A stretch of DNA of 64,000 bases from an uncultured Spirochaetales bacterium (GCA_964501435.1 CAZCTH010000008.1:2978-66977); one strand, 5' to 3'; shown: positions 25,738 to 41,647, numbered from the stretch's first letter. Notes: generated by a model from the sequence alone, not told the origin. A program made the numbers and translations.

Positions 25738-26511
25738 ATGAGTCTCGCAGGACGCGTCGCGCTCGTGACCGGCGGCAGCCGCGGCATCGGGCGCGCCATC
25801 GCGCTCGGCCTCGCCGAGGACGGCGCCGACGTCGCGGTGAACTACCGCAAGGACGAAGCGGCCGCGCGCGAGACGGTCGCGGCGATCGAGAAGCTCGGGC
25901 GTCGCGCGCGCATGTACGCCGCCTCGGTGGACCGCTACGACGAGGACCAGCGCATGGTCGAGGCGATCGTGCGCGACTTCGGCCACGTGGACATCCTCGT
26001 CAACAACGCGGGCATCGCGAGCCGCGGCAACACGGTCGAGAAGACCGATCCCGCGGAGATGGAGCGCGTCGTCCGCACCCACGCGTTCGGCGCGCACCAT
26101 CTGTGCCAGCTCGTGCTGCCGAGCATGAAGGCGCGCCCGCGCGGCGACATCGTGATGATCTCGAGCGCTGCGACGATCAGCCACGGTGCGTCCGGCGCGC
26201 CCTACAACATGGCCAAGGCCGCGCTCGAGGCGCTCGCCTTCACGCTCGCGAAAGAGGTCCGCCACAAGAACGTGCACGTGAACGTGGTGGCGCCGGGCCT
26301 GGTGGAGACCGAGATGGGTCGGCGGCTCGCGAAGGCGGCCGCCGGCGTGCAGGACATCCACGAGCTCGATCGCACGATGCCGTTCGGGCGCGTGTGTCAG
26401 CCCGAGGACGTCGCGAACGCGGTGCGCTTCTTCGTCTCGGACAAGGCGTCCTACGTGACGGGCGAGCGCCTCTACGTGTACGGCGGCGGCCAGGAGATGC
26501 GGCGCGCCTGA
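25738..26511 (+). CDS. SDR family oxidoreductase
   Basis: ATG 25738 lies in the frame of ORF 25348..26511. Motifs: VTGGSRGIGRA, NNAG, YNMAKAA. Confidence 0.9.
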   Translation: MSLAGRVALVTGGSRGIGRAIALGLAEDGADVAVNYRKDEAAARETVAAIEKLGRRARMYAASVDRYDEDQRMVEAIVRDFGHVDILVNNAGIASRGNTVEKTDPAEMERVVRTHAFGAHHLCQLVLPSMKARPRGDIVMISSAATISHGASGAPYNMAKAALEALAFTLAKEVRHKNVHVNVVAPGLVETEMGRRLAKAAAGVQDIHELDRTMPFGRVCQPEDVANAVRFFVSDKASYVTGERLYVYGGGQEMRRA

Positions 26512-26523
26512 CGCGCGTCGCCG

Positions 26524-27771
26524 CTAGGCGGGCTCGAAGCGCACCGGCATCGACTCGATGCCGAGCACGAACGTGCCGCGCCGGCGCGGAAGCGGCCGCG
26601 CGGGCTCGGCGAGCTCCACGTGCCGCCAGGCGGCCAGCAGCTCCTCGAACAGCACCCGCAGCTCGAGGCGAGCGAGCTGCGCGCCGAGGCAGTGGTGGCG
26701 GCCGAAGCCACCGAAGGCGACGTGGTCGTTCGGGCTGCGCTCGACGTCGAAGCGGAACGGATCGGCGAAGGCGCGCGCGTCGCGGTTCGCGGACGGGTAG
26801 AGCAGCAGCAGGCGGTCGCCGCTGCGGATGCGCTGGCCGCGCAGCTCCGTGTCCCGCGTTGCGGTGCGGTTCATGTTCTGGATTGGCGTCACCCAGCGCA
26901 GCATCTCTTCCACGGCGCTCGGCACGAGGGCGGGGTTCGCGCGCAGCTTCGCGAGCTCGGCGGGGTGCTCGAGCAACGCGGCGAGTCCGCCGGAGATCAC
27001 GTGGCGCGTGGTCTCGTCGCCGCCCACGAGCACGAGCATCGTCTCGAAGATCAAGTCGTCTTCGCTGAGCCGCTCTCCGTCGACGACGGCGTTGACCGCG
27101 AGGCTCACGAGATCCTCGCCGTTCCCGCCGCGCCGTTCGGCGATCACGCGCTGGATGTAGCCTGCATACGCGATCACGGCGTCGCGCACCTGATCGGCGA
27201 TCTCCGCGTTGCCGGTCGCGAACAGGTCCGACCAATGCAGCAGCGTCGCGTGGTCCGCCTCGGGCAGGCCCATCAGCTCGCCGATCATGTACATCGGCAG
27301 CGGCGTCGCGACGTCGCGCACGAAGTCGCACGCGCCGCGCTCCGCGACGCCCGCGAGCAACTCGCGCACCTTGCGGCGCAGGAACGGCTCGTGGTCCTGA
27401 ACGCGGCGCTGCGTGAAACCCGCGGAGATGATGCGGCGCCGCAGCACGTGCTGCGGCGGATCCATGTTGATCATGCTCGGCACCGAGCTGTCCGGTCGCG
27501 AGCCCTCGCCCGAGCAGAACGTCTCCCAGTCGCGCGCGACGGTCATCAGGTCGTCGTAGCGGGCGACCCCCCAGATCCCGGTGGCGTCGTCCCAGTAGAC
27601 GGGCGCGTGTTCCCGCATCCACGCCATGCGCTCGTGCGGGTCGGCGTAGAAGTCCGGCGAGAGCAGCCGCACGTCCTCGCGCGTCGGGTGAGCCGACGCG
27701 CGCGTGCCCGGCCGCAGCGTGCGCGTGTAGCGCCCGTCGTCGGCTTGGGTCGGGGCAGAGTTCTCGGCCAT
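26524..27771 (-). CDS. cytochrome P450
   Basis: ATG 27771 is residue 64 of ORF 26524..27960 (-). The I-helix is VLVGGDETT, the ExxR motif is EEMLRW, and the heme loop is FGGFGRHHCLGAQLA. Confidence 0.9.
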   Translation of the reverse strand: MAENSAPTQADDGRYTRTLRPGTRASAHPTREDVRLLSPDFYADPHERMAWMREHAPVYWDDATGIWGVARYDDLMTVARDWETFCSGEGSRPDSSVPSMINMDPPQHVLRRRIISAGFTQRRVQDHEPFLRRKVRELLAGVAERGACDFVRDVATPLPMYMIGELMGLPEADHATLLHWSDLFATGNAEIADQVRDAVIAYAGYIQRVIAERRGGNGEDLVSLAVNAVVDGERLSEDDLIFETMLVLVGGDETTRHVISGGLAALLEHPAELAKLRANPALVPSAVEEMLRWVTPIQNMNRTATRDTELRGQRIRSGDRLLLLYPSANRDARAFADPFRFDVERSPNDHVAFGGFGRHHCLGAQLARLELRVLFEELLAAWRHVELAEPARPLPRRRGTFVLGIESMPVRFEPA

Positions 27772-27805
27772 TGCGGTCTCCTGGCGCGCGCATCGATAGC
27801 CCAGC

Positions 27806-27950
27806 CGAGCCGCGAGCGTCCGCGGCTCGCCCGAAACCCCTCGGCGGTGCGCATCCGATCGCGCAACCGCGCGATCGGCCGAGGGTTTCGCACGCGCGCG
27901 GCGGGCTCCGCGCAACGCCGAGGTCTCGCAGGCGCCTCGCAGATGCGAGG
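27806..27950. promoter_or_regulatory. hairpin/palindrome-dense divergent control region (candidate operators or 5'-UTR structures)
   Basis: There are three elements. CGAGCCGCG-N6-CGCGGCTCG lies at 27806-27829. CCGATCGCGC-AACC-GCGCGATCGG at 27855-27878 is nested in the imperfect outer repeat GAAACCCCTCGGC...GCCGAGGGTTTC (27833-27889). CCTCGCA-GA-TGCGAGG lies at 27935-27950. All sit between P450 start 27771 (-) and operon start 28007 (+). Confidence 0.4.
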
Positions 27951-28006
27951 CGTGAGCCACGCAGTTTGTCGTTCAAAGCCCCAGTCGTTCTGACGAATCC
28001 CTCTGC

Positions 28007-29839
28007 GTGAAAATGCGTAGCTCCAATTCTGGGGAAGCGCGCGCCCGTGCGCGCGCGAATCCCCAACAACTCGCGCGGCGCGCCGCGGCGGCGATCGCGC
28101 TCGCGTGCGCGCTGTTCGCCGCCGCACCCGCGCTCGCGGCGACGCCGATCGCGCTCTTCCGCAGCTACGCGGGCAACATCCAGTTCACCGGCACTGCGGG
28201 CACGCTGCGCGCGAGCTCCAACACGGTGAACGCGTGCAACCTGAACGCGTCCGGCGCGGGCGTGCTGAGCGGGCTGCCCGCGGGCGCGACCGTCGTCGCC
28301 GCCCATCTCTATTGGGCGGGTTCCGGCACCACGGTCGACTCGCAGGTGACGCTCGCGCGCTCTGGCGGCGGCGGCAGCACCACCGTCACCGCCAGCCGCA
28401 CCTTCACGGAGACGTACCTCAACGGCGCCACGCTGCTGAGCTTCTTCTCCGGCTACGCCGACGTCACCTCGTTCGTCACCGGCAACGCAACGTACACGCT
28501 CTCGAACCTCGCCGTGAACAGCGGCAACCCGTACTGCTCGTCCGCGGCGGTCGTCTCGGGGTGGAGCCTCGTCGTCGTCTACCGCCTCGCCTCGGCGCCG
28601 CTGCGCGTGGTGAACATCTCGGACGGCTTCCAGGGCTTCCGCGGCGCGCAGCTCTCGATCGTCGACAACAACTTCGAGGTTCCCCCCTCGGGCATCGACG
28701 CGTTCGTCTCCCACGTCACCTGGGAAGGCGACACGGAGAACTCGACGGCGCTCGGCGGCTTCACCGAGAACCTGCGATTCCAGGGGACCGCGCTCACCGA
28801 CGCGCTCAATCCGCTCAACAACCAATTCAACTCGGCGAGCAACATCACCGGCAGCGCGACCACCTGGGGCGTCGACTTCGACCGGTACAACGTCACGTCG
28901 CTCGTGACGGCCGGCCAGACCTCCGCGACCACGCAGTACTCGAGCGGCGGCGACCTCGTGCTGCTCAGCGCCGAGGTCTTCAGCGTCACCAACGTCCCGA
29001 TCGCGGACCTCTCGATCGCGAAGAGCCACGCGGGGACGTTCACGACCGGCCAGAACGGCGCCTACACCCTCACGGTCTCGAACGCGGGTCCGAGCGCCTC
29101 TTCCGGCACGACGACCGTCACGGACACGCTGCCCGTCGGGCTCTCGTTCGTGTCCGCGAGCGGGACGGGCTGGACCTGCGGTGCGGTCGGCCAGGTCGTG
29201 ACCTGCACGCATGGGGGCGCGATCGCGAGCGGCGCGTCGCTCCCGGCGATCACCCTCACCGTCGCCGTCGCGGCGAACGCGCCGGCCTCGGTCACGAACA
29301 CGGCGACGGTCGCCAACCCCACCTTCGACAACGTCGCCGCCAACGACACCGCGAGCGACGTCACCGCGATCTCGCAGTTGCCCGACGTGCTCGTGATCAA
29401 GAGCGCGGTCGTGACGGGCGACCCCGTGAACGGCGCGACCAACCCGAAGGCGATCCCTGGCGCGAGCATCCGCTACGCCGTCGCCGTCACCAATCAGGGC
29501 TCCGGAACGCCCACCGCCGACTCCGTGCTCGTCGAGGATCCGCTGCCCGCCGAGCTCGAGCTGTTCGTGAACGGCTTCGGCGGCCCGAGCCCCGTCGCGT
29601 TCGTCGACGGCGCGACGGCGAGCGGCCTCGCGCTGGTGTTCGCCGGACTCGGCAGCGCGGCCGACGACCTCGAGTTCGACGACGGGTCGAACGCCTTCAC
29701 CTACGTGCCGGTGCCCGACGCGGACGGATACGACGCGGCCGTGCGCGCGATCCGCGTGCGCCCGAGCGGGACGTTCGCCGGCGCGAGCGTCGCCGGCGCG
29801 CCGAGCTTCGAGCTGCGCTTCCAGGCGCGCGTGAAATGA
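28007..29839 (+). CDS. secreted DUF11-type ('conserved repeat domain') protein with an unassigned ~330-aa N-terminal beta-rich domain; operon gene 1
   Basis: The ORF is 610 aa, starting at GTG 28007 or ATG 28013. The signal peptide is ...AAAAIALACALFAAAPALA|ATP. A canonical DUF11 module is present (ADLSIAKSHAGTFTTGQNGAYTLTVSNAGPSASSGTTTVTDTLPVGLSFVSASGTGWTC...VTCT). A second Ig-like module follows (VIKSAVVTGDPVNGATNPKAIPGASIRYAVAVTNQG). Confidence 0.8.
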   Translation: MKMRSSNSGEARARARANPQQLARRAAAAIALACALFAAAPALAATPIALFRSYAGNIQFTGTAGTLRASSNTVNACNLNASGAGVLSGLPAGATVVAAHLYWAGSGTTVDSQVTLARSGGGGSTTVTASRTFTETYLNGATLLSFFSGYADVTSFVTGNATYTLSNLAVNSGNPYCSSAAVVSGWSLVVVYRLASAPLRVVNISDGFQGFRGAQLSIVDNNFEVPPSGIDAFVSHVTWEGDTENSTALGGFTENLRFQGTALTDALNPLNNQFNSASNITGSATTWGVDFDRYNVTSLVTAGQTSATTQYSSGGDLVLLSAEVFSVTNVPIADLSIAKSHAGTFTTGQNGAYTLTVSNAGPSASSGTTTVTDTLPVGLSFVSASGTGWTCGAVGQVVTCTHGGAIASGASLPAITLTVAVAANAPASVTNTATVANPTFDNVAANDTASDVTAISQLPDVLVIKSAVVTGDPVNGATNPKAIPGASIRYAVAVTNQGSGTPTADSVLVEDPLPAELELFVNGFGGPSPVAFVDGATASGLALVFAGLGSAADDLEFDDGSNAFTYVPVPDADGYDAAVRAIRVRPSGTFAGASVAGAPSFELRFQARVK

Positions 29840-29853
29840 CACCCCGAGGAGCC

Positions 29854-30885
29854 ATGGCCATGCACCGACACCGCTTCCCCCGCACCCGCGCGCTGCGCGC
29901 GCTCGCGCTCGCGACGTCGGTCGTCGCGCTTTGCGGCGCCGCAGCGCACGCGGTCGGCACCGCGGCCGGCACCGACATCACGAACACCGCGAGCGTCACC
30001 GCCGACGTCGGCGGGTCGCCGGTCACGGCGACCAGCAACCCCAACGTGATCCGCGTCGCCGAGGTGATCGACGTCGACGTCACGCTGCTGTCGGTCGGCA
30101 ACGTGCTCGTCAACTCGCCGTCGAGCGGGCAGGTGCTCACGTTCCGCGTCACCAACACCGGAAACGGCGTGGACCGCTTCGCGCTCACGGTGAACGACGC
30201 GCTCGTCGGCGACGCGTTCGACCCGGTTTTCGCGAGCCTCTGGTTCGACGCGAACGGAAACGCCCTCTACGACGCAGGCGTCGACACGCTCTACACGCCG
30301 GGCCTGAACGACCCGCTGCTCGACGCCAACGCGCCCGCGGCCGACGACGTGGTCGTGTTCGTGCTGAACGACGTGCCGGCCGGCCTCGCGAGCGGCGACC
30401 TCGGCGACAGCGAGCTGCTCGCCGCGTCCGCCACCGGCGTGGGCGCGCCCGGCACGGTGATCGCCGGCGCGGGCGAGGCGGGCACCGACGCGATCGTGGG
30501 GACGAGCGGTGGCGACGACCTCGCGCAGGGGACTTATCAAGTCTCGTCGGTCGCGCTCGCGATCGCCAAGACCTCCACCGTGGCGGATCCGTTCGGCGGG
30601 TCGCAGCCGATCCCGGGCGCGACCATCACCTACTCGCTCGTCGTGACGGTCGCCGGCGCGGGCAGCGCCGACGCCGCGACGCTCAGCGACGCGATCCCGG
30701 CCAACACGACCTACGTCGCCGGCTCGATGACGCGCAACGCGGCCGCGCTCACGGACGCGAGCGACTCGCCCGTGGACGAGGCGGACTTCGGGGTGACGAC
30801 CGCCGGGGCCATCACGGTCGGTCTCGGAAATCTGCCGGCGGGCGGTCCGCCGGAAACGATCACGTTCCAAGTGACGATCAATTAG
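29854..30885 (+). CDS. secreted DUF11-like repeat protein; operon gene 2
   Basis: ATG 29854 (or 29860) follows GAGGAG, in the frame of ORF 28105..30885. The signal peptide is RALALATSVVALCGAAAHA|VG. The mature N-terminus reads GTAAGTDITNTASVTADVGG. Other motifs are VTNTGNGVDRFAL, WFDANGNALYDAGVD and the C-terminal module AIAKTSTVADPFGGSQPIPGATITYSLVV. Confidence 0.75.
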   Translation: MAMHRHRFPRTRALRALALATSVVALCGAAAHAVGTAAGTDITNTASVTADVGGSPVTATSNPNVIRVAEVIDVDVTLLSVGNVLVNSPSSGQVLTFRVTNTGNGVDRFALTVNDALVGDAFDPVFASLWFDANGNALYDAGVDTLYTPGLNDPLLDANAPAADDVVVFVLNDVPAGLASGDLGDSELLAASATGVGAPGTVIAGAGEAGTDAIVGTSGGDDLAQGTYQVSSVALAIAKTSTVADPFGGSQPIPGATITYSLVVTVAGAGSADAATLSDAIPANTTYVAGSMTRNAAALTDASDSPVDEADFGVTTAGAITVGLGNLPAGGPPETITFQVTIN

Positions 30886-30896
30886 GGAGGGAAGCC

Positions 30897-31391
30897 ATGA
30901 AACGAGCTTCGATTCGATTCGGTGCGGCGACGGTCGCCGCGCTGGCTCTGGCGAGCGCGGCGCTCGGCGAGGCGGGCAGCATCGAGCTGCGCGCGCGCGC
31001 CGAGAAGCGGCTCTTCGTGCAGCAGCCCGACGGCACGGCGAGCGAGCAGTTCGTGCCGGTCGGGAAGGTCGTGCCGGGCGACGTCGTCGCCTACACGATC
31101 GAGGCGCGCAACGTCTCGACGTCGGGCGCGGATCGCGTGGTGATCACGGATCCGATCCCGGCCGAGATGAAGTACGTCGAGGGCAGCGCCGCGGCGACGG
31201 GCGCGCAGCTGCTCTTTTCCGTCGACGGCGGCTTCCGCTTCGGCTCGCCCGACGAGCTGACCGTCGCGAACGAGGACGGCACCCGCCGCCCTGCGGTCGC
31301 CAGCGACTACACGCACGTGCGCTGGGTGTTCGCGACCCCCCTCGCCCCGGCCGAGCAGCGGTCGGTGCGCTTCCTGGCGCAGCTCGAGTAG
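30897..31391 (+). CDS. small secreted single-domain DUF11-like protein; operon gene 3
   Basis: ATG 30897 follows GGGAGGG, in the frame of ORF 29931..31391. The protein reads MKRASIRFGAATVAALALASAALGEAG...VVPGDVVAYTIEARNVSTSGADRVVITDPIPAEMKYVEGS. Confidence 0.75.
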   Translation: MKRASIRFGAATVAALALASAALGEAGSIELRARAEKRLFVQQPDGTASEQFVPVGKVVPGDVVAYTIEARNVSTSGADRVVITDPIPAEMKYVEGSAAATGAQLLFSVDGGFRFGSPDELTVANEDGTRRPAVASDYTHVRWVFATPLAPAEQRSVRFLAQLE

Positions 31392-31436
31392 CGCGCCGGC
31401 CTTTCGGTTCTCGTGATCCTCAACAAGGAGAAAGTC

Positions 31437-32591
31437 ATGCAACGGGATTGGAAACGCAGCGTTCGAGCCGGGGTGGTCCTGGCGTCGTTCGCAATCGCGG
31501 CCGCGCAGGGTGCGCAGGCCGCCGGGACGGCCTCGGGCACGTCCGTCGACAACCGCGCCACCGTGTCGTACGCGGTCGGCGCCACCGCGCAGCCGGTGAT
31601 CGAGTCGTCGCCCACGGGCAACTCGACCTCCGGCGCCGGCAACGGAACCGACACGAGCTTCGTGGTGGACAACCGCATCGACCTCACCGTCGCGGAGCTG
31701 TCCGGCAGCTACACGACGGTGGCGGCTGGCGGCACGAACGAGGTTCTCGTCTACACGGTGACCAACACCGGCAACGGGACGCAGGACTACTCGCTCGCCG
31801 CGGCCGACAACGCGACGGATCCGTTCGGCGGGACCGACAACTTCGACGCGACGCCGGTGGGCGTGTTCGTCGACGCGAACGCCAACGGCACCTACGACGC
31901 GGGTGTCGATCTCGCGACGTTCGTGGACGAGCTGGCGGCGGACGCAGCGGCCACGGTGTTCGTGGTGCGCAACATTCCGGGCGGCCAGGCGAACGGCGAC
32001 ATCTCGGCCGTGACGCTGACTGCGCAGGTCGCGCAGGGCGGCGGCGTGGGCGCGCAGGGCGCCGACATCCTGACCGACGACTCGGCGATCGCCGACGACC
32101 CGGCCACGGTGCAGATCGTGTTCGCGGACGCGGCGGGCGACACCGACGCGGCCAACGACGGCGCGCACTCCGACAGCGATGCCTATCGCGTGGGTGCGGC
32201 GCAGATCACCGTGTCGAAGAGCTCGGCGGTGGTGAGCGACCCGATCAACGGGGCGACGAATCCGAAGGCGATCCCCGGCGCGACGGTCGAGTACACCGTC
32301 GTGGTCAGCAACGCGGTCGGCGCGAGCGCGACCGCGACGAACGTGCAGGTGGCGGACAGCCTGAACGCGGAGATCACGGCCGGTACGGTCGCGTACGACG
32401 CGAACGGCTACGCGGCCGGCGCGGGCATGCAGGTGACGGCGCCGAACATCGCGGGCGGCGCTCCGACCGCGCTGTCGAACGGAGTGGACGCCGACTCCGG
32501 CGACTTCTCCGCGAACGTCGTGACCGTGGGCGGCATCTCGCTCAACCCGGGCGAGTCGGCCACGGTCCGCTTCCGAGTCGTCATTCAGTAA
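31437..32591 (+). CDS. secreted DUF11-like repeat protein, paralog of gene 2; operon gene 4
   Basis: ATG 31437 follows AAGGAGA, in the frame of ORF 31413..32591. The signal peptide is VVLASFAIAAAQGAQA|AG. The mature N-terminus reads GTASGTSVDNRATVSYAVGA. Other motifs are VTNTGNGTQDYSL, FVDANANGTYDAGVD and TVSKSSAVVSDPINGATNPKAIPGATVEYTVVVSN. Confidence 0.75.
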   Translation: MQRDWKRSVRAGVVLASFAIAAAQGAQAAGTASGTSVDNRATVSYAVGATAQPVIESSPTGNSTSGAGNGTDTSFVVDNRIDLTVAELSGSYTTVAAGGTNEVLVYTVTNTGNGTQDYSLAAADNATDPFGGTDNFDATPVGVFVDANANGTYDAGVDLATFVDELAADAAATVFVVRNIPGGQANGDISAVTLTAQVAQGGGVGAQGADILTDDSAIADDPATVQIVFADAAGDTDAANDGAHSDSDAYRVGAAQITVSKSSAVVSDPINGATNPKAIPGATVEYTVVVSNAVGASATATNVQVADSLNAEITAGTVAYDANGYAAGAGMQVTAPNIAGGAPTALSNGVDADSGDFSANVVTVGGISLNPGESATVRFRVVIQ

Positions 32592-32597
32592 CGACTC

Positions 32598-35500
32598 GTG
32601 AGCGCTCGGCTTCCGATCCCGATGCACGAGCCCCGGCGGGCCCGCGCGGAGTCCTCGCGACTCCGCGCGCGGCCCGTTCGGGGCGCCGTGCGTTCGCGCA
32701 TCGGAAGCTGGCTCTGCGCGTGGCTGGTCGCGCTCTTCGCGCTCGCCAGCCACGCGCAGACGCCCGCCGGCACGGTCATCGCGAACACCGCCCAGGGCGT
32801 CTACACGCCGCCCAGCGGCATCCCGACGACGGTGCTCTCCAACACGGACGCGATCACGACGGCGGCGCTGCGCACGCCGTCCGCGACCGAGATCTTCCAC
32901 TTCGCGCCCGGCGCGCCCGGTTCGTTCGCGACGAACGTCGGGCCCGCGCAATGCAGCGCGTCCGGCAGCGCGGCCGGCCCGTTCGCCGCCGCGCCGAACC
33001 CCACCGATTTCTCGGGCGCTCCGATCAATCTCGGCGCGCCCGTCGACCTGCTCGCAGGCGGCGCCTACCACCAGGGCGAAGCGCTGTTCCTGCGCGTCGT
33101 GGACGCCGATCAGAACGCGAACCCGCTCGTCGCCGAGACCGCAGTGATTACGGTCGCGTCGCTCACGACGGGCGACGTCGAAGTGCTCCTCGCCGCAGAG
33201 ACGGGCCCGAGCACTGGCGTCTTCGTCGCCTACCTGATGAGCGGGGCGCCGCCTCCGGTGAGCGGCGACTGCCGCCTCGCGGTGAGCGCGGGGGAAACCT
33301 TCGTCGCGAGCTACCTCGACCCCGCCGACGGCACCGACAGCTCGTCGAGCGGCGCGCTCGTCGATCCCCTCGGCGTCGTGTTCGACAGCGCCACCGGCGC
33401 GCCGGTGAGCGGCGCGGTCGTCACGCTGATCGACGCGGCGAGCGGCCTGCCCGCGACGGTCTTCGGCGACGACGGCGTGTCGAGCTACCCCGCGAGCGTC
33501 ACGAGCGGGGGCACCGTCACGGATTCCGGCGGAACGACCTACGCGTTCGCGCCGGGGCGCTTCCGCTTCCCGTTCGTCGCGCCCGGGACGTATCGCCTGC
33601 AAGTTGTGCCGCCGCCCAGCCATGCGTTTCCTTCGCTCGTCGCCGACGCTGCCCTCCAGCTCCTTCCGGGCGCACCGTATGCGCTGGGCCCGGGCTCGCG
33701 CGGCAACGACTTCGTCGTCCCGCTCGGGCCGATCTTCCAGGTCGACGTGCCGCTCGACTCCGCAGCTCCCGGCGGAGCGCTCACCCTCGCGAAGCGCGCG
33801 AATCGCGCGACCGCGGGGGTCGGCGAGTTCGTGCAGTACGTGCTCCTCGTTTCGGCGCCGAGCGGCAGCGCGGGCCAGCCCGCGACGCTCGAGGATCGGC
33901 TCCCGCGCGGCTTCCGCTTCGAGCGCGGCTCGCTGCGCATCGGCGGCGCGCCGGCGCCCGATCCCGCGATCGCGCAGGACGCGCGCACGCTCGCGATCCC
34001 GCTCGGCGTGCTCGCGCCCGGCGCGCAGGTCGAGGTGCGCTACGTGGCGCGGCTCGGGCCGGAAGCACGCGGCGGACGCGCGGTGAACGAGGCGATCGTG
34101 CGCGCGGGCGCGCTCGCCTCGAACCCGGCGCGCGCCGTCGTACTGGTCACGCGCGATCTCTTGAACGAGCGCGCGACACTGGTCGGCCGCGTGATGGAAG
34201 GCGACTGCGGCGCGGACCTGCGCGACGAGCATGCCGGCGTCGCGGGCGTGCGCGTCTACCTCGAGGACGGCACGCACGTCGTGACGGACGAGCAGGGCCG
34301 CTTCCACTTCCCGGTCGTCGCCGCGGACACCCACGTCGTCCAGCTCGACACGCAGACGCTGCCCGAGGGCTTCATGCCGCGCGCCTGCGCCGGCAACCGC
34401 TTCGCGGGCCGCTCGTACTCGCAGTTCGTCGAGCCGCAGCGCGGCTCGCTGTGGCGCAGCGACTTTTTCCTCGAGCGGACACCGAGCGGCCGTGGACTCC
34501 ACCAACGGCTCACCGTCACGCCGGCCGGCGATCGCCAGGACGTCGAGCTGAACGTCACGGTGGTCGGTGCGACGCTGAACGCCGTCTCCGGCCTCGTGCT
34601 GCTGCCGAGCGGGCTCGCGCCGCTGCCGGGCAGCGTCGAGGTCGCCGGCCCCGGCGCACGCTTCGACGCGGAGAGCCCGGCGCCGACGGTCCGCGCGGCC
34701 GCCCTCGCGCCCGGCGACGTCGTGACGCTGCGCTTCGCGTTGGCCGCGCCGGGCGACACGCAATTGAATGCGCTCGCACGCGGGAAGCGCGACACCGGCG
34801 AGCCCGTCCAGACGCCCGTGGTGAAGAGCGAGCTCGCCGAGCCGCGCACCTACACGCAGAGCGCGACCTGGGAGGACGCGCCCGCCGCGGCCTCGCCACC
34901 GGCCGAGCCCGCACCGCCCGAAGCCGCATTCGGCGACGCCTGGCTGGCGACCGCCACGCCCGCGAACGCGTGGCTGTACCCCGAGGCGGGCTTCGTTCCG
35001 AAGATCCCGTCGGTGAAGCTCGGTGTGCAGCACGACCCCGCGCTGCGCGTACGCCTGTTCCGCAACGGCGAGCTGGTGAGCCCGCTCAACTTCGACGGCG
35101 TGCAGAAGAACGCGGCGAAGACGGTCGCGGTGAGCCGCTGGCGCGGCGTCGATCTCGCCGAGGGCCCCAACAAATTCGTGGTCGAGCTGCTGAACGCGGA
35201 CGGCGCGGTCGTCGAACGCCTCGAGCAGCGCGTCCACTCCTCGGGCCCGCCGGTGCGCGGCGAGCTGATGCCGACGCTCTCGACCCTCGTCGCGGACGGC
35301 CGCACCGCGCCGGTCGTCGCGGTGCGGCTCTTCGACCGCTGGGGCCAGCCCGTGCGCGAGGGCATGAGCGGACCGCTCCAGGTCGCGTCGCCGCACCGCG
35401 CGCGCGAGTCGGTGGAGCGCGCGCGCGAGCGGCAGCTCGCCGTGCCGAATCTCGGTGCGACGAGCTTCGTGGTCGGCGCGGGCGGCCTCGCGCGCATCGC

Positions 35501-38156
35501 GCTCGAGCCCACCACGACGATGGGCCGCTTCGCGCTCACGCTTCAGCTCGCGGACGACCGCCGCGAGGAGATCGAGGGCTGGCTCTCGCCGGGCCGCCGC
35601 GAGCTCACGCTCGTGGGCGTCGGCAGCGGCACGCGCGGCTTCGGCGACACGCGGGGCAACGGCTCCGCCGCCCGAGCGGCGGGCCTCGACGCCAGCGGAC
35701 GGGACGGACGCGTCGCGCTGTTCGCGACCGGCACGGTGCGCGGCGAGTGGCAGGTGACCGCGGCCTACGACTCGCGCCCGAGCCAGGCGTCGCCGGGCGA
35801 TCGCTTGCAGCGCACGCTCGACACCCAGGAGCACTTCGCGCTCTACGGCGACGACACGCAGGAGGGCTACGAGGCCCCGACTTCCGACGGCGTGTTCCTG
35901 AAGCTCCAGCGCGATCGCTTCTATGCGCTCTACGGCGACTACACCACGGCGCTCGGCGAGACCGAGCTCGCGCGCTACGACCGCATCGTCACCGGCCTGA
36001 AGAGCGAGTACTACGGCGAGGCGCTGCGCTGGAACGCGTTCGCGACCGACACCGGGCAGGCGTTCGCGCGCGACGAGATTCGCGGCAACGGCACCTCGGG
36101 CCTGTACCGCCTCTCGCAGGCGCCGATCGTGATCGGCAGCGAGCGCGTGCGGATCGAGGTGCGCGATCGCTTCCGGCCGGGCCGCGTGGTCGAGGCGCGG
36201 CCGCTCGTCGCGCAGATCGACTACGACGTGGATCCGTTCGCGGGCACGCTCCACTTCCGCGAGCCGGTGGCCGGCCGCGACGAGCGCTTCAACCCCGTCT
36301 TCATCGTCGTCGAGTACGAGACCGCGGGCGGCGGCGACGCGCTCTCCGGCGGCGGTCGCGTCGCCGGACGCTGGCTCGGAGGCGCCCTCGAGCTCGGCGC
36401 GACCGGCGTCCACGAGGGGCGGGGTGCACAGTCGGGCGACCTGGTCGGCCTGGATGCCACTTATCAATGGGACGAGGCGACGAAGCTGCGCGCCGAGTGG
36501 GCGGGTAGCGATGGCGACAGCTTCGCGGGCCCGCGGCGCGGGCTCGGCTGGCTCGTCTCTGCGGAGCACCGCACGCAGGCGCTCGAGCTGGTGGCGAGCG
36601 CGCGCGAGCAAGAGGGCGGCTTCGGGCTCGGGCAGCTCTCGGCGATCGACCAGGGCGCGCGGCGCATCGGCGTGGACGGGCGCTGGCGCTTCCGCGAGCA
36701 CTGGTCGCTCGTGGGCAGCGGCTTCCACGAGCAGAACCTCGCCACGAACGACGACCGTCAGATCGCCGAGTCGATCGTCGAGTGGGACGACACGCACCGC
36801 GGGCTGCACGCGGGCGCGCGCTACGTGCGCGATTCGGCGCCGCTCGCCGCCGCGAACACGGCGCAACTGCTGCTCGGCGGCCACCACGGTTTCTTCGGCG
36901 AGCGGCTCACGCTGCGCGCGGGAACCGAGATCGGCTTCGGCTCGGAAGGGCCGCACGGCGACTACTCGGATCGCGTGGCGGTGGGCGCCGACTTCAAGGC
37001 GACCGACTGGCTGCGGCTCTTCGCCGAGCACGAGCTGACGTTCGGCGACGTGCATTCCGGGCAGGACACGCGGGTCGGCGCGGCCGTGACGCCCTGGGAG
37101 GGCGGCCAAGTCACCGCGAGCCTCGGGCAGCAGGCGCTACCGAGCGCGACGGCCGGGACCGCGCTCTCGCCCGAGAGCGCGCCGGCGGCGGGCCGCGAGT
37201 ACGGGCCGCGCACCTACGCGAACCTCGGCGTGGCGCAGCACTGGAACCTCGCTCAGTACTGGGGCTTCGACCTCGCGGTGGACCGCTCGCAGACGCTGAA
37301 GGGCGCCGGGGTCGCGCCGTTCGACGCGAGCGTGCCAGCCTACTCAGGCGTCGGCGCCACCACCGACGACTACACCGCGGTGTCGCTCGGCGCGGGCTAC
37401 AGCCGCGACGGCGTCGCGTTCACGAGCCGCGCGGAGACGCGCTTCGGCGAGCTCGAGGACCTGTGGAGCTTCACGCTCGGTGCGCTCAGCGACCAGGACC
37501 GCACGTCCTACGCCGGCCACGTCGAGCTGTTCCTCAGCGACCGCGCGGGCGCGAGCCCCGTCACGGAAGACATCTACGCCACGCGCTTCTCGCTCGCGCA
37601 TCGGCCGCTCGACACGCGCTTCATCGTGCTCGAGCAGGTCGAGTACGAGCACGGCCTCACCGAGGGCGGCGGCCTGAACACCCGCGGCGACCGCGTGCTG
37701 AACCACCTGAAGCTCAACTACACCCTCGACGACCGCACGCAGCTCTCCTGGCAGTACTCGGCGAAGTGGGTCTCCGAGCGCATCGACGGCGAGCGCTACG
37801 CGTCGATCGGCCACCTGTTCGGCGTCGAGGCGCGCGTCGACGTCGCCGACGGCTGGGACTTCGCGGTGGCGGCGCGCGCGCGCCAGCTCAGCTCGGGCCG
37901 CGCCGACGACGGCAACTACTCGGTCGGCGCGAGCGTCGGTCGGCTGCTGATGAAGAACGTGTGGGCGAGCGCCGGCTACAACGCGGTCGGCTTCCGCGAC
38001 GAGGACTTCTCGCGGGCGGACTACACCGCCAAGGGCCCGTTCGTGCGCCTGCGCGTGAAGGTGGACCAGGACTCGATCCGCGAGTGGCTCGAGTTCTCGC
38101 CGCGCCTCGCCGGCCGCATGCGCGGCGCCTTCGCCGCGAACGGCGCGCAGCGCTGA
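32598..38156 (+). CDS. giant (1852 aa) multidomain surface protein: DUF11-like, CnaB/SdrD-B-like and Big-like modules followed by an ~850-aa putative outer-membrane beta-barrel region; operon gene 5
   Basis: ORF 32598..38156 starts at GTG, with an alternative ATG at 32622. The signal peptide is IGSWLCAWLVALFALASHA|QTPAGTVIANTAQGVYTPPSG. Prealbumin-like modules include VVFDSATGAPVSGAVVTLID...GTYRLQVVPP and VAGVRVYLEDGTHVVTDEQGRFHFPVV. There is a DUF11 module (LTLAKRANRATAGVGEFVQYVLLVSAP...LEDRLPRGFRFERGSLRIGG) and an Ig-like module (STLVADGRTAPVVAVRLFDRWGQPV). From about 35600 onward the sequence has alternating hydrophobic/polar strands rich in G, Y, D and R, down to ...WASAGYNAVGFRDEDFSRADYTAKGPFVRLRVKVD. 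Confidence 0.8.
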   Translation: MSARLPIPMHEPRRARAESSRLRARPVRGAVRSRIGSWLCAWLVALFALASHAQTPAGTVIANTAQGVYTPPSGIPTTVLSNTDAITTAALRTPSATEIFHFAPGAPGSFATNVGPAQCSASGSAAGPFAAAPNPTDFSGAPINLGAPVDLLAGGAYHQGEALFLRVVDADQNANPLVAETAVITVASLTTGDVEVLLAAETGPSTGVFVAYLMSGAPPPVSGDCRLAVSAGETFVASYLDPADGTDSSSSGALVDPLGVVFDSATGAPVSGAVVTLIDAASGLPATVFGDDGVSSYPASVTSGGTVTDSGGTTYAFAPGRFRFPFVAPGTYRLQVVPPPSHAFPSLVADAALQLLPGAPYALGPGSRGNDFVVPLGPIFQVDVPLDSAAPGGALTLAKRANRATAGVGEFVQYVLLVSAPSGSAGQPATLEDRLPRGFRFERGSLRIGGAPAPDPAIAQDARTLAIPLGVLAPGAQVEVRYVARLGPEARGGRAVNEAIVRAGALASNPARAVVLVTRDLLNERATLVGRVMEGDCGADLRDEHAGVAGVRVYLEDGTHVVTDEQGRFHFPVVAADTHVVQLDTQTLPEGFMPRACAGNRFAGRSYSQFVEPQRGSLWRSDFFLERTPSGRGLHQRLTVTPAGDRQDVELNVTVVGATLNAVSGLVLLPSGLAPLPGSVEVAGPGARFDAESPAPTVRAAALAPGDVVTLRFALAAPGDTQLNALARGKRDTGEPVQTPVVKSELAEPRTYTQSATWEDAPAAASPPAEPAPPEAAFGDAWLATATPANAWLYPEAGFVPKIPSVKLGVQHDPALRVRLFRNGELVSPLNFDGVQKNAAKTVAVSRWRGVDLAEGPNKFVVELLNADGAVVERLEQRVHSSGPPVRGELMPTLSTLVADGRTAPVVAVRLFDRWGQPVREGMSGPLQVASPHRARESVERARERQLAVPNLGATSFVVGAGGLARIALEPTTTMGRFALTLQLADDRREEIEGWLSPGRRELTLVGVGSGTRGFGDTRGNGSAARAAGLDASGRDGRVALFATGTVRGEWQVTAAYDSRPSQASPGDRLQRTLDTQEHFALYGDDTQEGYEAPTSDGVFLKLQRDRFYALYGDYTTALGETELARYDRIVTGLKSEYYGEALRWNAFATDTGQAFARDEIRGNGTSGLYRLSQAPIVIGSERVRIEVRDRFRPGRVVEARPLVAQIDYDVDPFAGTLHFREPVAGRDERFNPVFIVVEYETAGGGDALSGGGRVAGRWLGGALELGATGVHEGRGAQSGDLVGLDATYQWDEATKLRAEWAGSDGDSFAGPRRGLGWLVSAEHRTQALELVASAREQEGGFGLGQLSAIDQGARRIGVDGRWRFREHWSLVGSGFHEQNLATNDDRQIAESIVEWDDTHRGLHAGARYVRDSAPLAAANTAQLLLGGHHGFFGERLTLRAGTEIGFGSEGPHGDYSDRVAVGADFKATDWLRLFAEHELTFGDVHSGQDTRVGAAVTPWEGGQVTASLGQQALPSATAGTALSPESAPAAGREYGPRTYANLGVAQHWNLAQYWGFDLAVDRSQTLKGAGVAPFDASVPAYSGVGATTDDYTAVSLGAGYSRDGVAFTSRAETRFGELEDLWSFTLGALSDQDRTSYAGHVELFLSDRAGASPVTEDIYATRFSLAHRPLDTRFIVLEQVEYEHGLTEGGGLNTRGDRVLNHLKLNYTLDDRTQLSWQYSAKWVSERIDGERYASIGHLFGVEARVDVADGWDFAVAARARQLSSGRADDGNYSVGASVGRLLMKNVWASAGYNAVGFRDEDFSRADYTAKGPFVRLRVKVDQDSIREWLEFSPRLAGRMRGAFAANGAQR

Positions 38157-38172: not shown

Positions 38173-38937
38173 TCAGTCCTCGTAGCGCTCGCGCAGCTTC
38201 TGCATGCCGCGGATCCAGCGGTCGTAGTCGCCCGCCTTGCGCTGGATGTACTGCTCCACCACCGGGTGCGGCAGCACGAGGAAGCGTTCCTCGTCGAGCG
38301 CCTGGGTCACCACCTCGGCGACCTGCTCGGGCTCGATCATGCCGTCCACGCTCGCGACGCCGTCCGGGTTGCTCGCGGTCATCGCGGTGCGCACCGCCTG
38401 CGGGCACAGCACGGAGACCTTGATGCCTTCGCGGCCGTGGGTGATCGCGATCCATTCGGCGAACGACACCGCGGCGTGCTTCGTCACCGCGTACGGCGCG
38501 GAGCCGATCTGCGAGAGCAGGCCCGCCGCGGAGGCGGTGTTCAGCAGGTAGCCGCCGCCACGCTTCGCCATGCGGGGCACGAGGTGCCGCGCGGCGTAGA
38601 TGTGGGACATCACGTTGATCTCCCAGATGCGCTGCCACTCGGAATCCGCGACCTCCGCGCCGCCCGCGATGCCGATGCCCGCGTTCGAGCAGAAGAGGGC
38701 GATCGGGCCGTGGCTGGCCTCGGTGTGCTCGATCAGGGCGACGAGGTCGGCTTCGCGCGCGACGTCCACCTGCCGGCCATCCCCGCCGATCTCCTGGGCG
38801 ACCCGGCGCGCGCCGTCGCCGTCGCGGTCCGCGACCACCACCTTGCGCGCGCCGTCCGCCGCGAAGCGCCGGCACATCGCCCGCCCGATTCCGCTCGCGC
38901 CGCCGGTGACGACGACGACCTGGTCCTTCACGCGCAT
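38173..38937 (-). CDS. SDR family oxidoreductase
   Basis: The ORF is 254 aa. Motifs: VVTGGASGIGRA, SNAG, YAVTKHA. Confidence 0.9.
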   Translation of the reverse strand: MRVKDQVVVVTGGASGIGRAMCRRFAADGARKVVVADRDGDGARRVAQEIGGDGRQVDVAREADLVALIEHTEASHGPIALFCSNAGIGIAGGAEVADSEWQRIWEINVMSHIYAARHLVPRMAKRGGGYLLNTASAAGLLSQIGSAPYAVTKHAAVSFAEWIAITHGREGIKVSVLCPQAVRTAMTASNPDGVASVDGMIEPEQVAEVVTQALDEERFLVLPHPVVEQYIQRKAGDYDRWIRGMQKLRERYED

Positions 38938-39004
38938 GGTCTTCTCCCGGAGCGGCGTTTCTGCCGAGCTCGCGGGCGCACGCTATCAGAGAAGCGCGTG
39001 CGCT

Positions 39005-40771
39005 CTAGACCCACACCGCGGGAGCCGGCAGGCCCGCGATCGCGACGCCGGGGCAGCGCGAGGAGAGCACGCGCGCCGCGTGGCCGACGTCGTCGGCGGC
39101 GGTCGGATAGGCGAGCAGGTGCCGTACCGCGAAGCCTTCCTCGGCTTCGGGCGTGCAGTGGCTGAACAGCACCCGGCGCGGGGCGAGCCGCGCGACGGCC
39201 GCGGCGGACTCGCTCGGGTCGGGCACGATCGTGCCGGCGTCGCCCAGCCACGCCGCTGGGACGCCGAGCGGGCGCATCTGCGTCGTGTGGACGCCGAGGC
39301 AGAGCGTGTCCACGAGCCGGCCGTCCTCGCGCGGCGCGAACTGCCAGCGAAACACGTCGGCCGCGTTGCGCGCGAGCCAGCGCGCGTTCAGGCCGTGCTG
39401 CGCGAAGCAGACGCGCTCGTCCGTGCGGTCGTCGCGCAGCACGATCGCGAGGTTGCGCCCGTAGCCCGCGAGCGGCAGAGCGCTCACCGCGTCGCCGAGC
39501 ACCTCGCAAGGAACGCCGGGTCGCAGCGCGGTGACGCTCGCGAAGCCCGCGCGCTCCGCGATCGGCACTGCGGCCTCGGCGGCGAACACGGGGACGCGCG
39601 GGTCGAGCCGCGCCAGCGTCGCCGGGTGAGCGTGGTCCTGCTCCGGGCTCGACAGCACGATCGCGTCGAGCGCCGGCAGATCGTCCGCACGGAGATGCGG
39701 CGACTCGAGGCGCTTGCCCGAGAAGAAGCGCGCGGAGCCCGAGACGTACGGGTCGTCGAGCCACGCGTCGAACAGGATCGTCCGGCCGCCGATCACGGCG
39801 AGCCACACCGACGCGCCGCGGTCGCACGCCATCAAGCGGATCGAGTCGTGCACCGTCGGCATCAGCGGCTTCCTTCGCTCGGCGCGCGCGGCACGCGGGA
39901 TGTCGTCGCGCTCGAGCGTGCGGGCGGCGAGCACGATCGCCGCGGTGGTGGGGTGCGCGCTCCAGCCTTGCGCGTGCAGGCGCCTCGCGAGCGCTGCGGA
40001 TTCCGCGATGGGCAGGCCGCGCTCGGCGGAGAGCCCTGCGCGCTGCGCCGCATTGAAGAACCAGCTGTTCACGAGCCGGAACGGCAGGCCGGCGCTGAAC
40101 TCCGACAGGTACCCGAGCAGCATCGGCCAGACGAGCCGCAGGTCGCGCGGCGCGTCGGCGAGCGCGAGGAAGCGGCGGTTCCCGACGATACCGGGCGGCA
40201 GCGGCTCGACCCAGTGTCCGGTGAAGCGCCAGAAGCCGAGCGCGACGAGGCCGAGCTGCGCGGCCGCGACGAGCGGCGCGCCGAAGCCGTGCAGCGCAGC
40301 CGCGGCGCTCGCGGCGAACGCGGCCCACAGCCCGCACAGCCCGAACGCCAGGCGGCGCTCGCCGAAGCTGAAGGCCTGCCACGCGAGCAGGCCCGCGAGC
40401 GCGGCGACGAGCGGCGCGCCGCCGAGCTCGGCGGCGATCACGAACCAGAGCCACGCCTCGACCGGGAACGCCGCGTGGGTTGCGTGGTTGTACCAGTGCG
40501 TGTGGTAGGCGGCGTAGGTGACGTTCTGCAGGTCGAAGCCGCGCACGCCGAAGTTGTTGGCGACCTGATAGGTGTACGGCATCGACTGGAGCCGGAAGAG
40601 CGCGCCCGGCGCCACGTGCACGAGCGCGTAGAAGACCGCCATCGCGACGAGCGTCCCGCGCCACAGCGCGGGCGCGGCGCCGCTCGTCGCGAGCGCCGCG
40701 AAGATCGCGCCGAGCGATCCCACGATCACTGCGCCGCGCACGGCGCGTGACGGCGTCTGCGCGATCTGCAT
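39005..40771 (-). CDS. fusion protein: N-terminal polytopic membrane domain (possibly Mpo1/DUF962-like) plus C-terminal MBL-fold (beta-lactamase-like) domain with a degenerate metal motif
   Basis: The ORF is 588 aa. The first ~280 aa contain several TM helices and the His-rich stretch YHTHWYNHATHAAFPVEAW. The C-terminal half reads GGRTILFDAWLDDPYV...LDAIVLSSPEQDHAHPATL. This matches the L-x-DPW...DH pattern of Lactamase_B_2/3 proteins, but SSPEQDH replaces SHxHxDH. Confidence 0.6.
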   Translation of the reverse strand: MQIAQTPSRAVRGAVIVGSLGAIFAALATSGAAPALWRGTLVAMAVFYALVHVAPGALFRLQSMPYTYQVANNFGVRGFDLQNVTYAAYHTHWYNHATHAAFPVEAWLWFVIAAELGGAPLVAALAGLLAWQAFSFGERRLAFGLCGLWAAFAASAAAALHGFGAPLVAAAQLGLVALGFWRFTGHWVEPLPPGIVGNRRFLALADAPRDLRLVWPMLLGYLSEFSAGLPFRLVNSWFFNAAQRAGLSAERGLPIAESAALARRLHAQGWSAHPTTAAIVLAARTLERDDIPRAARAERRKPLMPTVHDSIRLMACDRGASVWLAVIGGRTILFDAWLDDPYVSGSARFFSGKRLESPHLRADDLPALDAIVLSSPEQDHAHPATLARLDPRVPVFAAEAAVPIAERAGFASVTALRPGVPCEVLGDAVSALPLAGYGRNLAIVLRDDRTDERVCFAQHGLNARWLARNAADVFRWQFAPREDGRLVDTLCLGVHTTQMRPLGVPAAWLGDAGTIVPDPSESAAAVARLAPRRVLFSHCTPEAEEGFAVRHLLAYPTAADDVGHAARVLSSRCPGVAIAGLPAPAVWV

Positions 40772-40897
40772 GGACCCTCCCGCACGGCGACGAATCTGGC
40801 GCCTCTACGCAGTTCCGTCAGTGCAACTTCGCTTGCTGGCCGATGGCGGGTGAGGCATCTCCGTGGCGCGACGAAGGAAAAAGGGAGGGAAGCGACG

Positions 40898-41647
40898 ATG
40901 GATCTCGGCATTCGTGGCAAGCGCGCGGCGGTGGCCGGCGCCTCGGCGGGGCTCGGTTTCGCGACGGCGAAGGCGCTCGCCGCCGACGGCGTGCGCGTCG
41001 CGATCTGCGGCCGCGACCGCGCGCGCATCGAGTCGGCGGCCCGCGCGATCGGAGAGAACGCCGTGCCGATCCTGGCCGACGTGAGCGCGCCGGCCGGCGC
41101 GGCGAAGTTCGTGCGCGACGCGCGGGGGGCGCTCGGCGGCCTCGACATCCTCGTCACGAACGCGGGCGGCCCGCCGCCCGGCACCTTCGCGAGCACGCCG
41201 CTCGAGGCGTATCCCGCGGCGATCGACCTCAACCTGATGAGCGTCGTCGCGATGTGCAAAGAGGCGGTCCCCGCGTTCCAGGCGCAGCGCTGGGGGCGAG
41301 TCGTCGCGATCACGTCGATCGCGGTCGCGACGCCGCTGCCGCACCTGATCCTCTCGAACACGGCGCGCGCCGGAGCGACCGGCTTCCTGAAGACGCTCGC
41401 GCGCGAAGTGGCGAAGGACGGCGTGACGGTGAATTCGGTGCTGCCGGGCGTGCACGACACCGAGCGCATCAAGGCGCTCGGCGGCGACGGCCGACTCTCC
41501 GACATGGCGCGCGGCATCCCGGTCGGCCGACTCGGGACGGCCGACGAGTTCGGCCACGTGGTCGCGTTCCTGTGCTCGCACCACGCCGCCTTCATCACCG
41601 GCGTCGCCGTGCCGGTGGACGGCGGCGCCGACCCCCATCTCTTGTAG
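40898..41647 (+). CDS. SDR family oxidoreductase
   Basis: ATG 40898 is residue 17 of ORF 40850..41647 and follows AAAGGGAGGGA. The protein reads MDLGIRGKRAAVAGASAGLGFATAKALAADGVRVAICGR, and also has TNAGGPPPG and ITGVAVPVDGG. Confidence 0.85.
   Translation: MDLGIRGKRAAVAGASAGLGFATAKALAADGVRVAICGRDRARIESAARAIGENAVPILADVSAPAGAAKFVRDARGALGGLDILVTNAGGPPPGTFASTPLEAYPAAIDLNLMSVVAMCKEAVPAFQAQRWGRVVAITSIAVATPLPHLILSNTARAGATGFLKTLAREVAKDGVTVNSVLPGVHDTERIKALGGDGRLSDMARGIPVGRLGTADEFGHVVAFLCSHHAAFITGVAVPVDGGADPHLL

Follow-up and report, generated by a model that had tools for sequence, protein, structure and literature searches.

A window of 64,000 nucleotides from an uncultured Spirochaetales bacterium (GCA_964501435.1 CAZCTH010000008.1:2978-66977; positions are counted from its first letter) encodes a giant protein of 1852 aa, designated G5, behind four smaller genes, G1 to G4. 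Structure modelling with AlphaFold2 (AF2) and residue coevolution indicated that the C-terminal region of G5 very probably forms an outer-membrane beta-barrel with about 36-38 strands, and this barrel probably exports the secreted immunoglobulin (Ig)-like partners and anchors them as a surface fibre. From its N-terminus, G5 consists of a signal peptide, an N-terminal motif, CarboxypepD_reg, a complete CLIPPER (DUF11) domain, an SdrD_B-like domain, Ig-like domains and the giant barrel. Pfam and NCBIfam matches were obtained for CarboxypepD_reg (residues 259-336), DUF11/CLIPPER (395-503) and SdrD_B-like (544-592), and past residue 600 neither database gave any match. An initial annotation, made from the sequence alone, had placed a change of character at about nt 35601, which is residue 1002, the first residue of ELTLVGVGSG, and had called the stretch 35601-38156 (residues 1002-1852) barrel-like. 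This change was borne out by the long antiparallel beta-meander in the AF2 model, and all of the peptides quoted in the annotation are present in G5.

The probable C-terminal barrel of G5 and its family

AF2 was run on G5 residues 760-1852 with an alignment of 104 sequences. The model (1093 residues, pLDDT 86, pTM 0.84) confidently showed two Ig-like sandwiches at about residues 790-1000, followed by about 38 antiparallel strands of 7-19 residues each, and the strands have a dyad hydrophobicity pattern. With about 38 strands over about 820 aa, the region is far too large for a type Va autotransporter barrel, in agreement with the initial annotation, which had however put it at the size of an usher or LptD. 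The best strand count was 38 (b1, 1004-1014, to b38, 1813-1822) and the minimum was 36, since the low-confidence hairpin 1504-1551 would be an excursion if strand 1488-1497 pairs with 1555-1566, with which it also couples (z 3.0).

Coevolution was analyzed by mean-field direct coupling analysis (DCA) with a reduced alphabet on 315 non-redundant module sequences (effective sequence number, Neff, 285). Among the top 50 pairs, 19 joined sequence-adjacent strands (1.6 expected at random), whereas pairs between far strands were strongly depleted. At the strand level, 30 consecutive adjacent pairings were scored with z of about 2-12, save one at 0.1; the meander runs from 1249-1259 to 1788-1797 with every consecutive pairing but one recovered. 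The pairing of strand 1004-1014 with 1035-1047 (z 5.6) showed that a barrel start near residue 1002 had been placed correctly to within a few residues. The conserved module itself begins earlier than the annotated region, however: BLAST against homologues delimited it from about 770-790 to about 1830, with the two Ig-like domains included. Strand 1143-1151 pairs with 1249-1259 (z 9.1), which makes residues 1152-1248 an insert and the barrel wall continuous across it.

If 1004-1014 is taken as b1, each of the 19 turns on one side of the modelled sheet has 2-6 aa by DSSP, and the opposite side holds every long loop (11, 13, 15, 15, 20, 25, 25 and 40 residues) as well as the 97-residue insert. 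This asymmetry, which is classic for outer-membrane barrels, places both barrel termini in the periplasm. In many homologues a peptidoglycan-binding OmpA domain stands between the N-terminal modules and the barrel, directly N-terminal of the module, which makes the junction of stalk and barrel periplasmic as well. The Ig-like domains at about 790-1000 presumably sit in the periplasm, and the designation of the N-terminal modules as a passenger in the initial annotation is doubtful. Two homologues have domains behind the barrel. P0296 carries tetratricopeptide (TPR) repeats and a second OMP_b-brl-type barrel, and P0316 a FlgD-Ig-like domain and an OmpA domain, the latter fitting a periplasmic C-terminal end. 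These extra domains may be fusions or natural variants.

Closure of the barrel (b1 to b38) has indirect support from the pTM of 0.84, the topology parity, the fold matches and weak wrap-around coevolution: of the DCA pairs between b1/b2 and b37/b38, three (1008-1830, 1020-1796 and 1026-1796) were found in the top 200 compared with 0.5 expected, each linking sites on one membrane side. G5 further has the general traits of outer-membrane barrels, namely a Sec signal peptide, an even number of antiparallel amphipathic strands, short periplasmic turns and a beta-signal-like end. In the last strand, the consensus of the family is G-P-[YF]-x-x-[FL]-R-x-K-F-D-Q; G5 has Val in place of the Phe. The basic tail that the initial annotation had noted behind it is 30 residues long in G5. 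Nearly all family members likewise have a beta-signal-like strand with a short tail, which is thus no peculiarity of G5: the majority of homologues end about 7-10 residues later, and the family alignment stops a median of 5 residues before the homologue C-termini. In the G5 tail, D1823 and Q1824 are conserved and the remainder is variable. Weak matches to the outer-membrane barrel families OMP_b-brl, Opacity, BBP2 and DUF5777 (Pfam) were observed in homologues.

Near-invariant columns are densest in the insert, where 27 of 97 columns are at least 90% conserved and the motifs GDGTSGLYRLS, EVRDRFR, DYxIDYxxGTLxFxxPV and FNPVFIVVEYE occur. Strong covariation links the insert to loop 1348-1356 (1194-1356 at 11.9 and 1194-1351 at 10.5 standard deviations), and it also covaries with loop 1075-1086 and with strand positions far apart along the sheet. 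By the parity of strands and loop lengths, the insert would lie in extracellular loop 4, and its covariation with loops and distant strands points to a cap or gate in or above the lumen that contacts neighbouring loops and the wall. An usher-like plug was considered and dropped, because the pairing across the insert and the parity put it on the extracellular side. The soluble-looking insert of the initial annotation was thus confirmed, whereas its plug-like nature was not, as it follows strand 7.

When residues 1002-1852 were used as the query, 169 proteins were retrieved from environmental Proteobacteria, from Nitrospirota and from further diderm lineages, with such annotations as "hypothetical" and "OmpA family protein". 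Screening 1.84 billion representatives with a profile gave 5034 members at E <=1e-3 and 2616 at E <=1e-30; the 5034 are cluster representatives at 50% identity, and conservation on this scale shows that the region is more than a chance resemblance. All lineages named among the matches are diderm, and a relative is encoded in the genomes of at least 592 species, the nearest ones being from metagenome-assembled genomes of Myxococcota or "Deltaproteobacteria" (72-82% identity). Full-length members are typically 1600-2400 aa long, some reaching about 3000, and carry the module C-terminally. No homologue consisting of the barrel region only was found; the shorter matches were contig fragments without signal peptides. 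The G5 sequence and the family profile gave no match against PDB chains, and the Pfam, NCBIfam and PDB searches revealed no homology to a barrel family of known function. The literature on DUF11, ushers, barrels and isopeptide bonds yielded no description of this family or system and no experimental work on its members. Barrels of 40 or more strands form an unnamed superfamily mentioned by Solan et al., and a Deinococcus paper mentions predicted 38-strand barrels, but a link from either to the G5 family could not be made. As judged by these searches, the family is large and undescribed, and its barrel is without a Pfam, NCBIfam or PDB representative, a gap in annotation that extends over about 5000 representatives in several diderm phyla.

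Foldseek with the barrel model returned only generic large barrels (TM <=0.29). The leading matches were outer-membrane proteins (SlpA, SprA, LptD, MtrB, TonB-dependent receptors and ushers), except for three giant beta-rich assemblies of non-bacterial origin (ApoB100, a nuclear-pore chain and a sperm-axoneme chain). The known classes were examined in turn. Type Va barrels are C-terminal, with 12 strands over about 250-300 aa and an alpha-helical linker through the pore; G5 gave no match to PF03797 at E up to 1, and DSSP shows two Ig-like sandwiches instead of a helix ahead of the first barrel strand. Inverse autotransporters (type Ve, intimin/invasin) have an N-terminal 12-strand barrel and a C-terminal Ig-like passenger, whereas the G5 barrel is C-terminal, as the initial annotation had noted, and far larger. 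The usher barrel has 24 strands, with a plug between strands 6 and 7 on the periplasmic side, and LptD has 26 strands. There was no Pfam match to the fimbrial usher (PF00577) and no sequence or profile match to PapC/FimD PDB chains, and the TM to 7LHI_C and 3RFZ_B was <=0.21. LptD (PF04453) and Omp85-BamA-TamA (PF01103), which are marked by a family sequence signature and by POTRA domains or a beta-jellyroll N-terminal domain, were rejected in the same way, as neither Pfam nor NCBIfam gave a match and LptD was a generic Foldseek match (TM <=0.22). TonB-dependent receptors have an N-terminal plug followed by a 22-strand barrel; no Pfam match (PF00593/PF07715) was obtained, and strand count and insert position differ. 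For SprA/Sov of type IX secretion (T9SS), there was no sequence match, the TM was <=0.22, and the hosts of the G5 family are Myxococcota, Pseudomonadota, Nitrospirota and others.

Operon partners and proposed split CLIPPER domains

G1 to G4 all have signal peptides and DUF11-type repeats, and lie upstream of G5 on the same strand with small gaps or none (Table 1). The G1 stop overlaps the longest G2 open reading frame (ORF) by 4 nt (29836-29839), and the earliest G5 start is 7 nt past the G4 stop (32591-32598); such tight spacing suggests co-translation as one unit. When 80 related loci were searched by tblastn with the operon proteins, the order G2-like, G3-like, G4-like, G5 was found to be kept across phyla. 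In 41 of the 42 loci with at least 4.2 kb of upstream sequence, which span Myxococcota, Desulfobacterota, Gamma-, Beta- and Zetaproteobacteria, Nitrospirota and Lentisphaeria, G2/G4-like and G3-like genes lie directly upstream on the same strand, and a G1-like gene was present in 23 of the 42 at varying positions. No other conserved partner gene was found near the G5 family in the 80 loci, which argues that no PapD-like chaperone, sortase or ATPase belongs to the system; G1 to G4 gave no match to chaperone families. The sfz stalk-formation cluster of iron oxidisers was rejected as an equivalent of the operon, as it encodes BcsB-like proteins, a glycosyltransferase and a glycosyl hydrolase.

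CLIPPER is the new name of DUF11, a CnaA-like Ig domain in which a Lys of the first strand and an Asn of a late strand form an isopeptide bond under catalysis by an Asp (PMC12617251). The complete Lys/Asp/Asn triad was found in G5 395-513 and in the first CLIPPER of G1 (Pfam and TIGR01451 matches), and the pattern K...D.LP...N.A occurs in cis in 74 of 104 G5 homologues; on this basis an isopeptide bond is predicted in CLIPPER domains. The truncated CLIPPER-like ends of G1, G2 and G4 keep Lys and Asp but stop before the Asn-bearing beta8-beta9 hairpin. In a set of 209 non-redundant G2/G4-like proteins, Lys was conserved in 100%, Asp in 99%, the motif Asn in 93%, Ala in 95% and Tyr in 89%, and all 114 proteins in which the last alignment column is filled end exactly there. 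The mature N-termini of G2, G4 and G5 share the motif G-T-x-[IV]-x-N-x-A-[TS]-[VIL]-x-Y, which was present in its strict form in 59 of 121 G5 homologues (background, 0.005 per 160 aa) and in a loose form in 94 of 104. In G5 this motif (GTVIANTAQGVY) is proposed to be a donor Asn strand.

A resemblance between these N-termini and the missing hairpin was seen in profile comparisons. By hhalign, the G5 N-terminal region matched G4 with a probability of 88% (E 3e-6), G4 stopping where G5 enters the Asn strand, and the G5 N-terminal segment matched the last hairpin of the CLIPPER domain of G5 itself (E 0.0024). In chimeras with a partner N-terminus appended to a truncated domain, the alignments of DUF7507 (CLIPPER_2), DUF7927 and DUF11 crossed the junction with a score gain of 3-8 bits, whereas the shuffled control gave no extension.

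Each partner was assigned a proposed role. G1, which has no N-terminal motif, would be the tip adhesin. Its residues from about 45 to 330 (28007-29000) have no family match, contain several Cys and show 47-51% identity in three related loci (L059, L060 and L073); this domain is a candidate adhesive tip domain. G2, located by a GC3 (third-position GC) frame plot inside the frame of a longer shadow ORF, would be a fibre subunit, and G4 the major subunit. The last domain of G4 is CLIPPER-like, with invariant Lys (Lys261) and Asp (Asp307), and the protein stops right behind the last modelled strand of this domain; the motif Asn of G4 is Asn39. A fold search with the G4 AF2 model (three Ig-like domains, pLDDT 91) retrieved generic tandem Ig-like proteins only (integrin legs, AgI/II, SdrG and Saf/CFA pilins), with low TM. 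G3 is conserved, secreted and always located between both subunit genes, has no N-terminal motif, and carries invariant residues of its own (G46, P60, N72, D110, R142 and W143). A role of G3 as an acceptor subunit was not supported, as neither Lys nor Asp is conserved in it; G3 might serve as a cap or chaperone.

Proposed fibre assembly and alternative explanations

We consider it about an even call that the G5 barrel of about 36-38 strands is both the translocon and the fused terminator and anchor of a G1-G4 fibre. As the sole membrane component of the G1-G2-G3-G4-G5 operon, the barrel would be the exit conduit for folded, Sec-exported CLIPPER subunits, and the passage of folded multi-domain subunits through the lumen would explain a pore far larger than that of an usher. 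The N-terminus of each subunit would complete the last domain of the preceding subunit by strand complementation in trans, and the junction might be locked by an intermolecular Lys-Asn isopeptide bond. Because G1 accepts only, it would take the tip position; G2 and G4, which donate and accept, would polymerise; and G5, whose own CLIPPER is complete and which is hence a donor only, would end the fibre. G5 would tether the fibre to the barrel; in many homologues, the OmpA domain would link it to peptidoglycan as well.

Several observations weigh against this reading. The chimeras gained few bits and remained under Pfam thresholds, the short hhalign comparisons were weak (E 0.002-0.03), and the TM of the barrel to known structures was low. 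The strand-level DCA score of b1 versus b38 was not significant. In the DCA of the G4 family (Neff 100), the N-terminal strand paired with residues 72-79, its putative hairpin partner, and with the N-terminal domain, and no clear coupling to the C-terminal domain was found; the key motif residues cannot covary in this analysis, because they are invariant. AF2 places the G4 N-terminus confidently in the monomer, so that the N-terminal strand may act in cis, as no more than strand A of the first domain. Finally, G3, with neither Lys nor Asp conserved, has no assigned role.

By analogy, the system functionally most resembles a chaperone-usher pilus (PapC/FimD with the terminators PapH/FimI) whose terminator is fused to the usher. 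In both, the outer-membrane barrel contains a soluble domain and the operon encodes Sec-exported Ig-like subunits and no ATPase, and the G proteins would follow the same subunit logic of tip (acceptor only), polymer (both) and terminator (donor only). The two differ in that the G5 barrel has 36-38 strands rather than 24, the insert is extracellular after strand 7 rather than periplasmic after strand 6, no PapD-like chaperone is encoded, and the terminator is fused to the barrel; moreover, the subunits are multi-domain CLIPPER proteins, and their missing element is a hairpin able to form an isopeptide bond. SprA/Sov (36 strands, PDB 6H3I and 8GL6) is likewise a single-chain barrel of record size, wide enough for folded substrates and with an extracellular cap. 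However, it has no sequence similarity to G5 (query-normalised Foldseek TM 0.16-0.22), the G5 family occurs in phyla other than Bacteroidota with no T9SS component conserved nearby, and the G5 barrel is the C-terminal part of an Ig/CLIPPER-array protein.

The proposed polymerisation has parallels in Sulfolobus threads (PMC9715654) and Clostridium perfringens BsaA (bioRxiv 10.1101/2024.11.04.621531), in which donor-strand complementation is combined with intermolecular isopeptide bonds: here too, an N-terminal strand would complete the Ig-like domain of the neighbour and be covalently locked. Their hosts are monoderm and no outer-membrane component is involved, whereas in the G operon the domain is CLIPPER/CnaA-like and split at the last hairpin, and the bond is only predicted. 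A CLIPPER fibrillar adhesin with an OmpA-like anchor has been described in Acinetobacter silvestris (B9T28_05395; PMC12617251). This, like G5, is a long envelope-anchored Gram-negative protein with CLIPPER, and relatives of G5 carry OmpA, but it is a single polypeptide with tandem complete CLIPPER domains for which no giant barrel or partner operon was described. Deinococcus SlpA (30 strands with an SLH domain, PDB 8AE1 and 7ZGX) shares with the G5 family a very large barrel and, in many members, a wall-binding domain; it differs in strand number and in the lack of sequence homology, and G5 has no coiled coil and no evidence of a trimer. The barrel would be a further variant among outer-membrane barrels; if confirmed, the reading of the system as a whole would describe something new in kind.

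G5 could instead be a self-contained giant adhesin, whose barrel exports and displays only its own N-terminal Ig/CLIPPER array, in the way of an autotransporter, while G1 to G4 are separate surface or periplasmic proteins sharing the operon. The signal peptide, the Ig-like/CLIPPER stalk and the C-terminal barrel of G5 fit such a protein, CLIPPER domains typically build the stalks of fibrillar adhesins, and a wide lumen could pass the folded domains of G5 itself. Yet G2, G3 and G4 are directly upstream in nearly all loci with no other export route encoded nearby, the OmpA domains found between stalk and barrel in homologues assign this stretch to the periplasm, a helical linker is lacking, the barrel has three times the size of autotransporter barrels, and the motif common to G2, G4 and G5 and the exact truncation of G2 and G4 would be left unexplained; we regard this explanation as unlikely. 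Equally unlikely, in our estimate, is a structural role in the envelope, in which a porin-like barrel ties the outer membrane to peptidoglycan in the manner of SlpA and G1 to G4 form an associated layer, on the surface or in the periplasm, rather than a fibre. SlpA structures were among the best Foldseek matches (E about 2e-7), OmpA peptidoglycan-binding domains occur in many homologues, and 38-strand barrels are predicted in Deinococcus; on the other hand, G5 itself has neither an OmpA nor an SLH domain, the TM to SlpA is only about 0.2 with no sequence similarity, and the donor/acceptor pattern of the partners points to a linear, ordered assembly.

Two further explanations concern the barrel itself. 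The top Foldseek match was the beta-belt of ApoB100, coevolution between b1 and b38 was weak, and loops are short on both faces over much of the sheet, all of which would suit an open amphipathic sheet (a belt or taco, ApoB100- or AsmA-like) or a soluble beta-rich fold instead of a closed transmembrane barrel. We think this improbable in view of the pTM over 1093 residues, the perfect loop-length asymmetry with an even strand count, the enriched wrap-around pairs with a consistent membrane side, the covariation of the insert with strands far apart along the sheet, and the outer-membrane barrel Pfam matches in homologues together with the beta-signal-like last strand. A nutrient-uptake channel related to TonB-dependent or SusC/Oar-like receptors would account for CarboxypepD_reg at 259-336, which is found at the N-termini of such receptors, and for the receptors among the Foldseek matches. 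It is nevertheless highly improbable: neither Plug nor TonB_dep_Rec was matched in Pfam even at E up to 1, the insert is within the barrel sequence and not ahead of it, and the strands number 36-38 rather than 22, with a TM normalised to the receptor of <=0.27.

Were closure with 36-38 strands confirmed, the barrel would be at least as large as SprA (36 strands), the largest single-chain outer-membrane barrel solved, and would raise the question of how BAM, the machinery for beta-barrel assembly, folds such a protein. If the fibre reading is true, the operon would represent a new route of folded-protein export and pilus assembly in Gram-negative bacteria, and a natural split-domain, SpyTag-like ligation system. 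The carriers, which include iron oxidisers, sulfate reducers, Nitrospirota and Myxococcota, are abundant in environments where adhesion and matrix formation matter. More tentatively, the G5 family might mark a widespread unrecognised fibre pathway that combines a barrel of about 38 strands, larger than any single-chain barrel solved so far, split-CLIPPER polymerisation and spontaneous intermolecular isopeptide locks with the N-terminus of G5 as the last link, and that needs no sortase, chaperone or ATPase.

Coordinates and neighbouring genes

The features of the operon are listed in Table 1. The probable start of G5 is Met9 (nt 32622) according to gene callers, and its GC3 in a genome of 72% GC identifies it as a real gene. 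Shadow ORFs are abundant in the window because of the high GC content, and real genes were picked by third-position GC. Very long shadow ORFs lie over real genes at 30882-37109 (-), 26240-29842 (-) and 31448-36508 (+); they have low GC3 contrast and are not genes.

Table 1. Positions of the operon genes and of the parts of G5 in the window.
Feature	Nucleotides	Strand	Protein or residues	Remarks
G1	28007..29839	+	610 aa	Signal peptide, ~330-aa unmatched N-terminal domain, complete CLIPPER, C-terminal truncated CLIPPER-like domain
G2	29836..30885	+	349 aa	Gene-caller start nt 29860; motif GTDITNTASV; C-terminal truncated CLIPPER-like domain
G3	30897..31391	+	164 aa	Signal peptide and single DUF11-like domain
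G4	31413..32591	+	392 aa (384 aa from Met9, nt 31437)	Motif GTSVDNRATVSY; three Ig-like domains
G5, giant protein	32598..38156	+	1852 aa	GC3 0.94
G5, N-terminal motif	32769..32804	+	58-69	Directly behind the predicted signal-peptide cleavage between SHA and QT
G5, complete CLIPPER (DUF11)	33780..34136	+	395-513	Lys in LTLAK, Asp in LEDRLP, Asn strand RAVNEAIV in cis
G5, two Ig-like beta-sandwich domains	34965..35597	+	~790-1000	Belong to the conserved C-terminal module
G5, barrel strands b1-b7	35607..36050	+	1004-1151	DSSP of the AF2 model and DCA pairings
G5, insert domain in the b7-b8 loop	36051..36341	+	1152-1248	About 7 short strands
G5, barrel strands b8-b38	36342..38063	+	1249-1822	Last strand GPFVRLRVKV, beta-signal-like
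G5, C-terminal tail and stop codon	38064..38156	+	1823-1852	Low-confidence helices in the model

The operon is flanked at 22815-27960 and 38173-41647 by genes for a zinc-ADH-like oxidoreductase, an amidohydrolase, three short-chain dehydrogenases, a cytochrome P450 and an MBL-fold protein. These metabolic genes are unrelated to the operon, and none is conserved beside it in other genomes. A response regulator and a PhoR-like sensor kinase were observed near the operon in 11-14 of the 80 related loci (for example, L022 and L031), a possible sign that phosphate or envelope signals regulate it.

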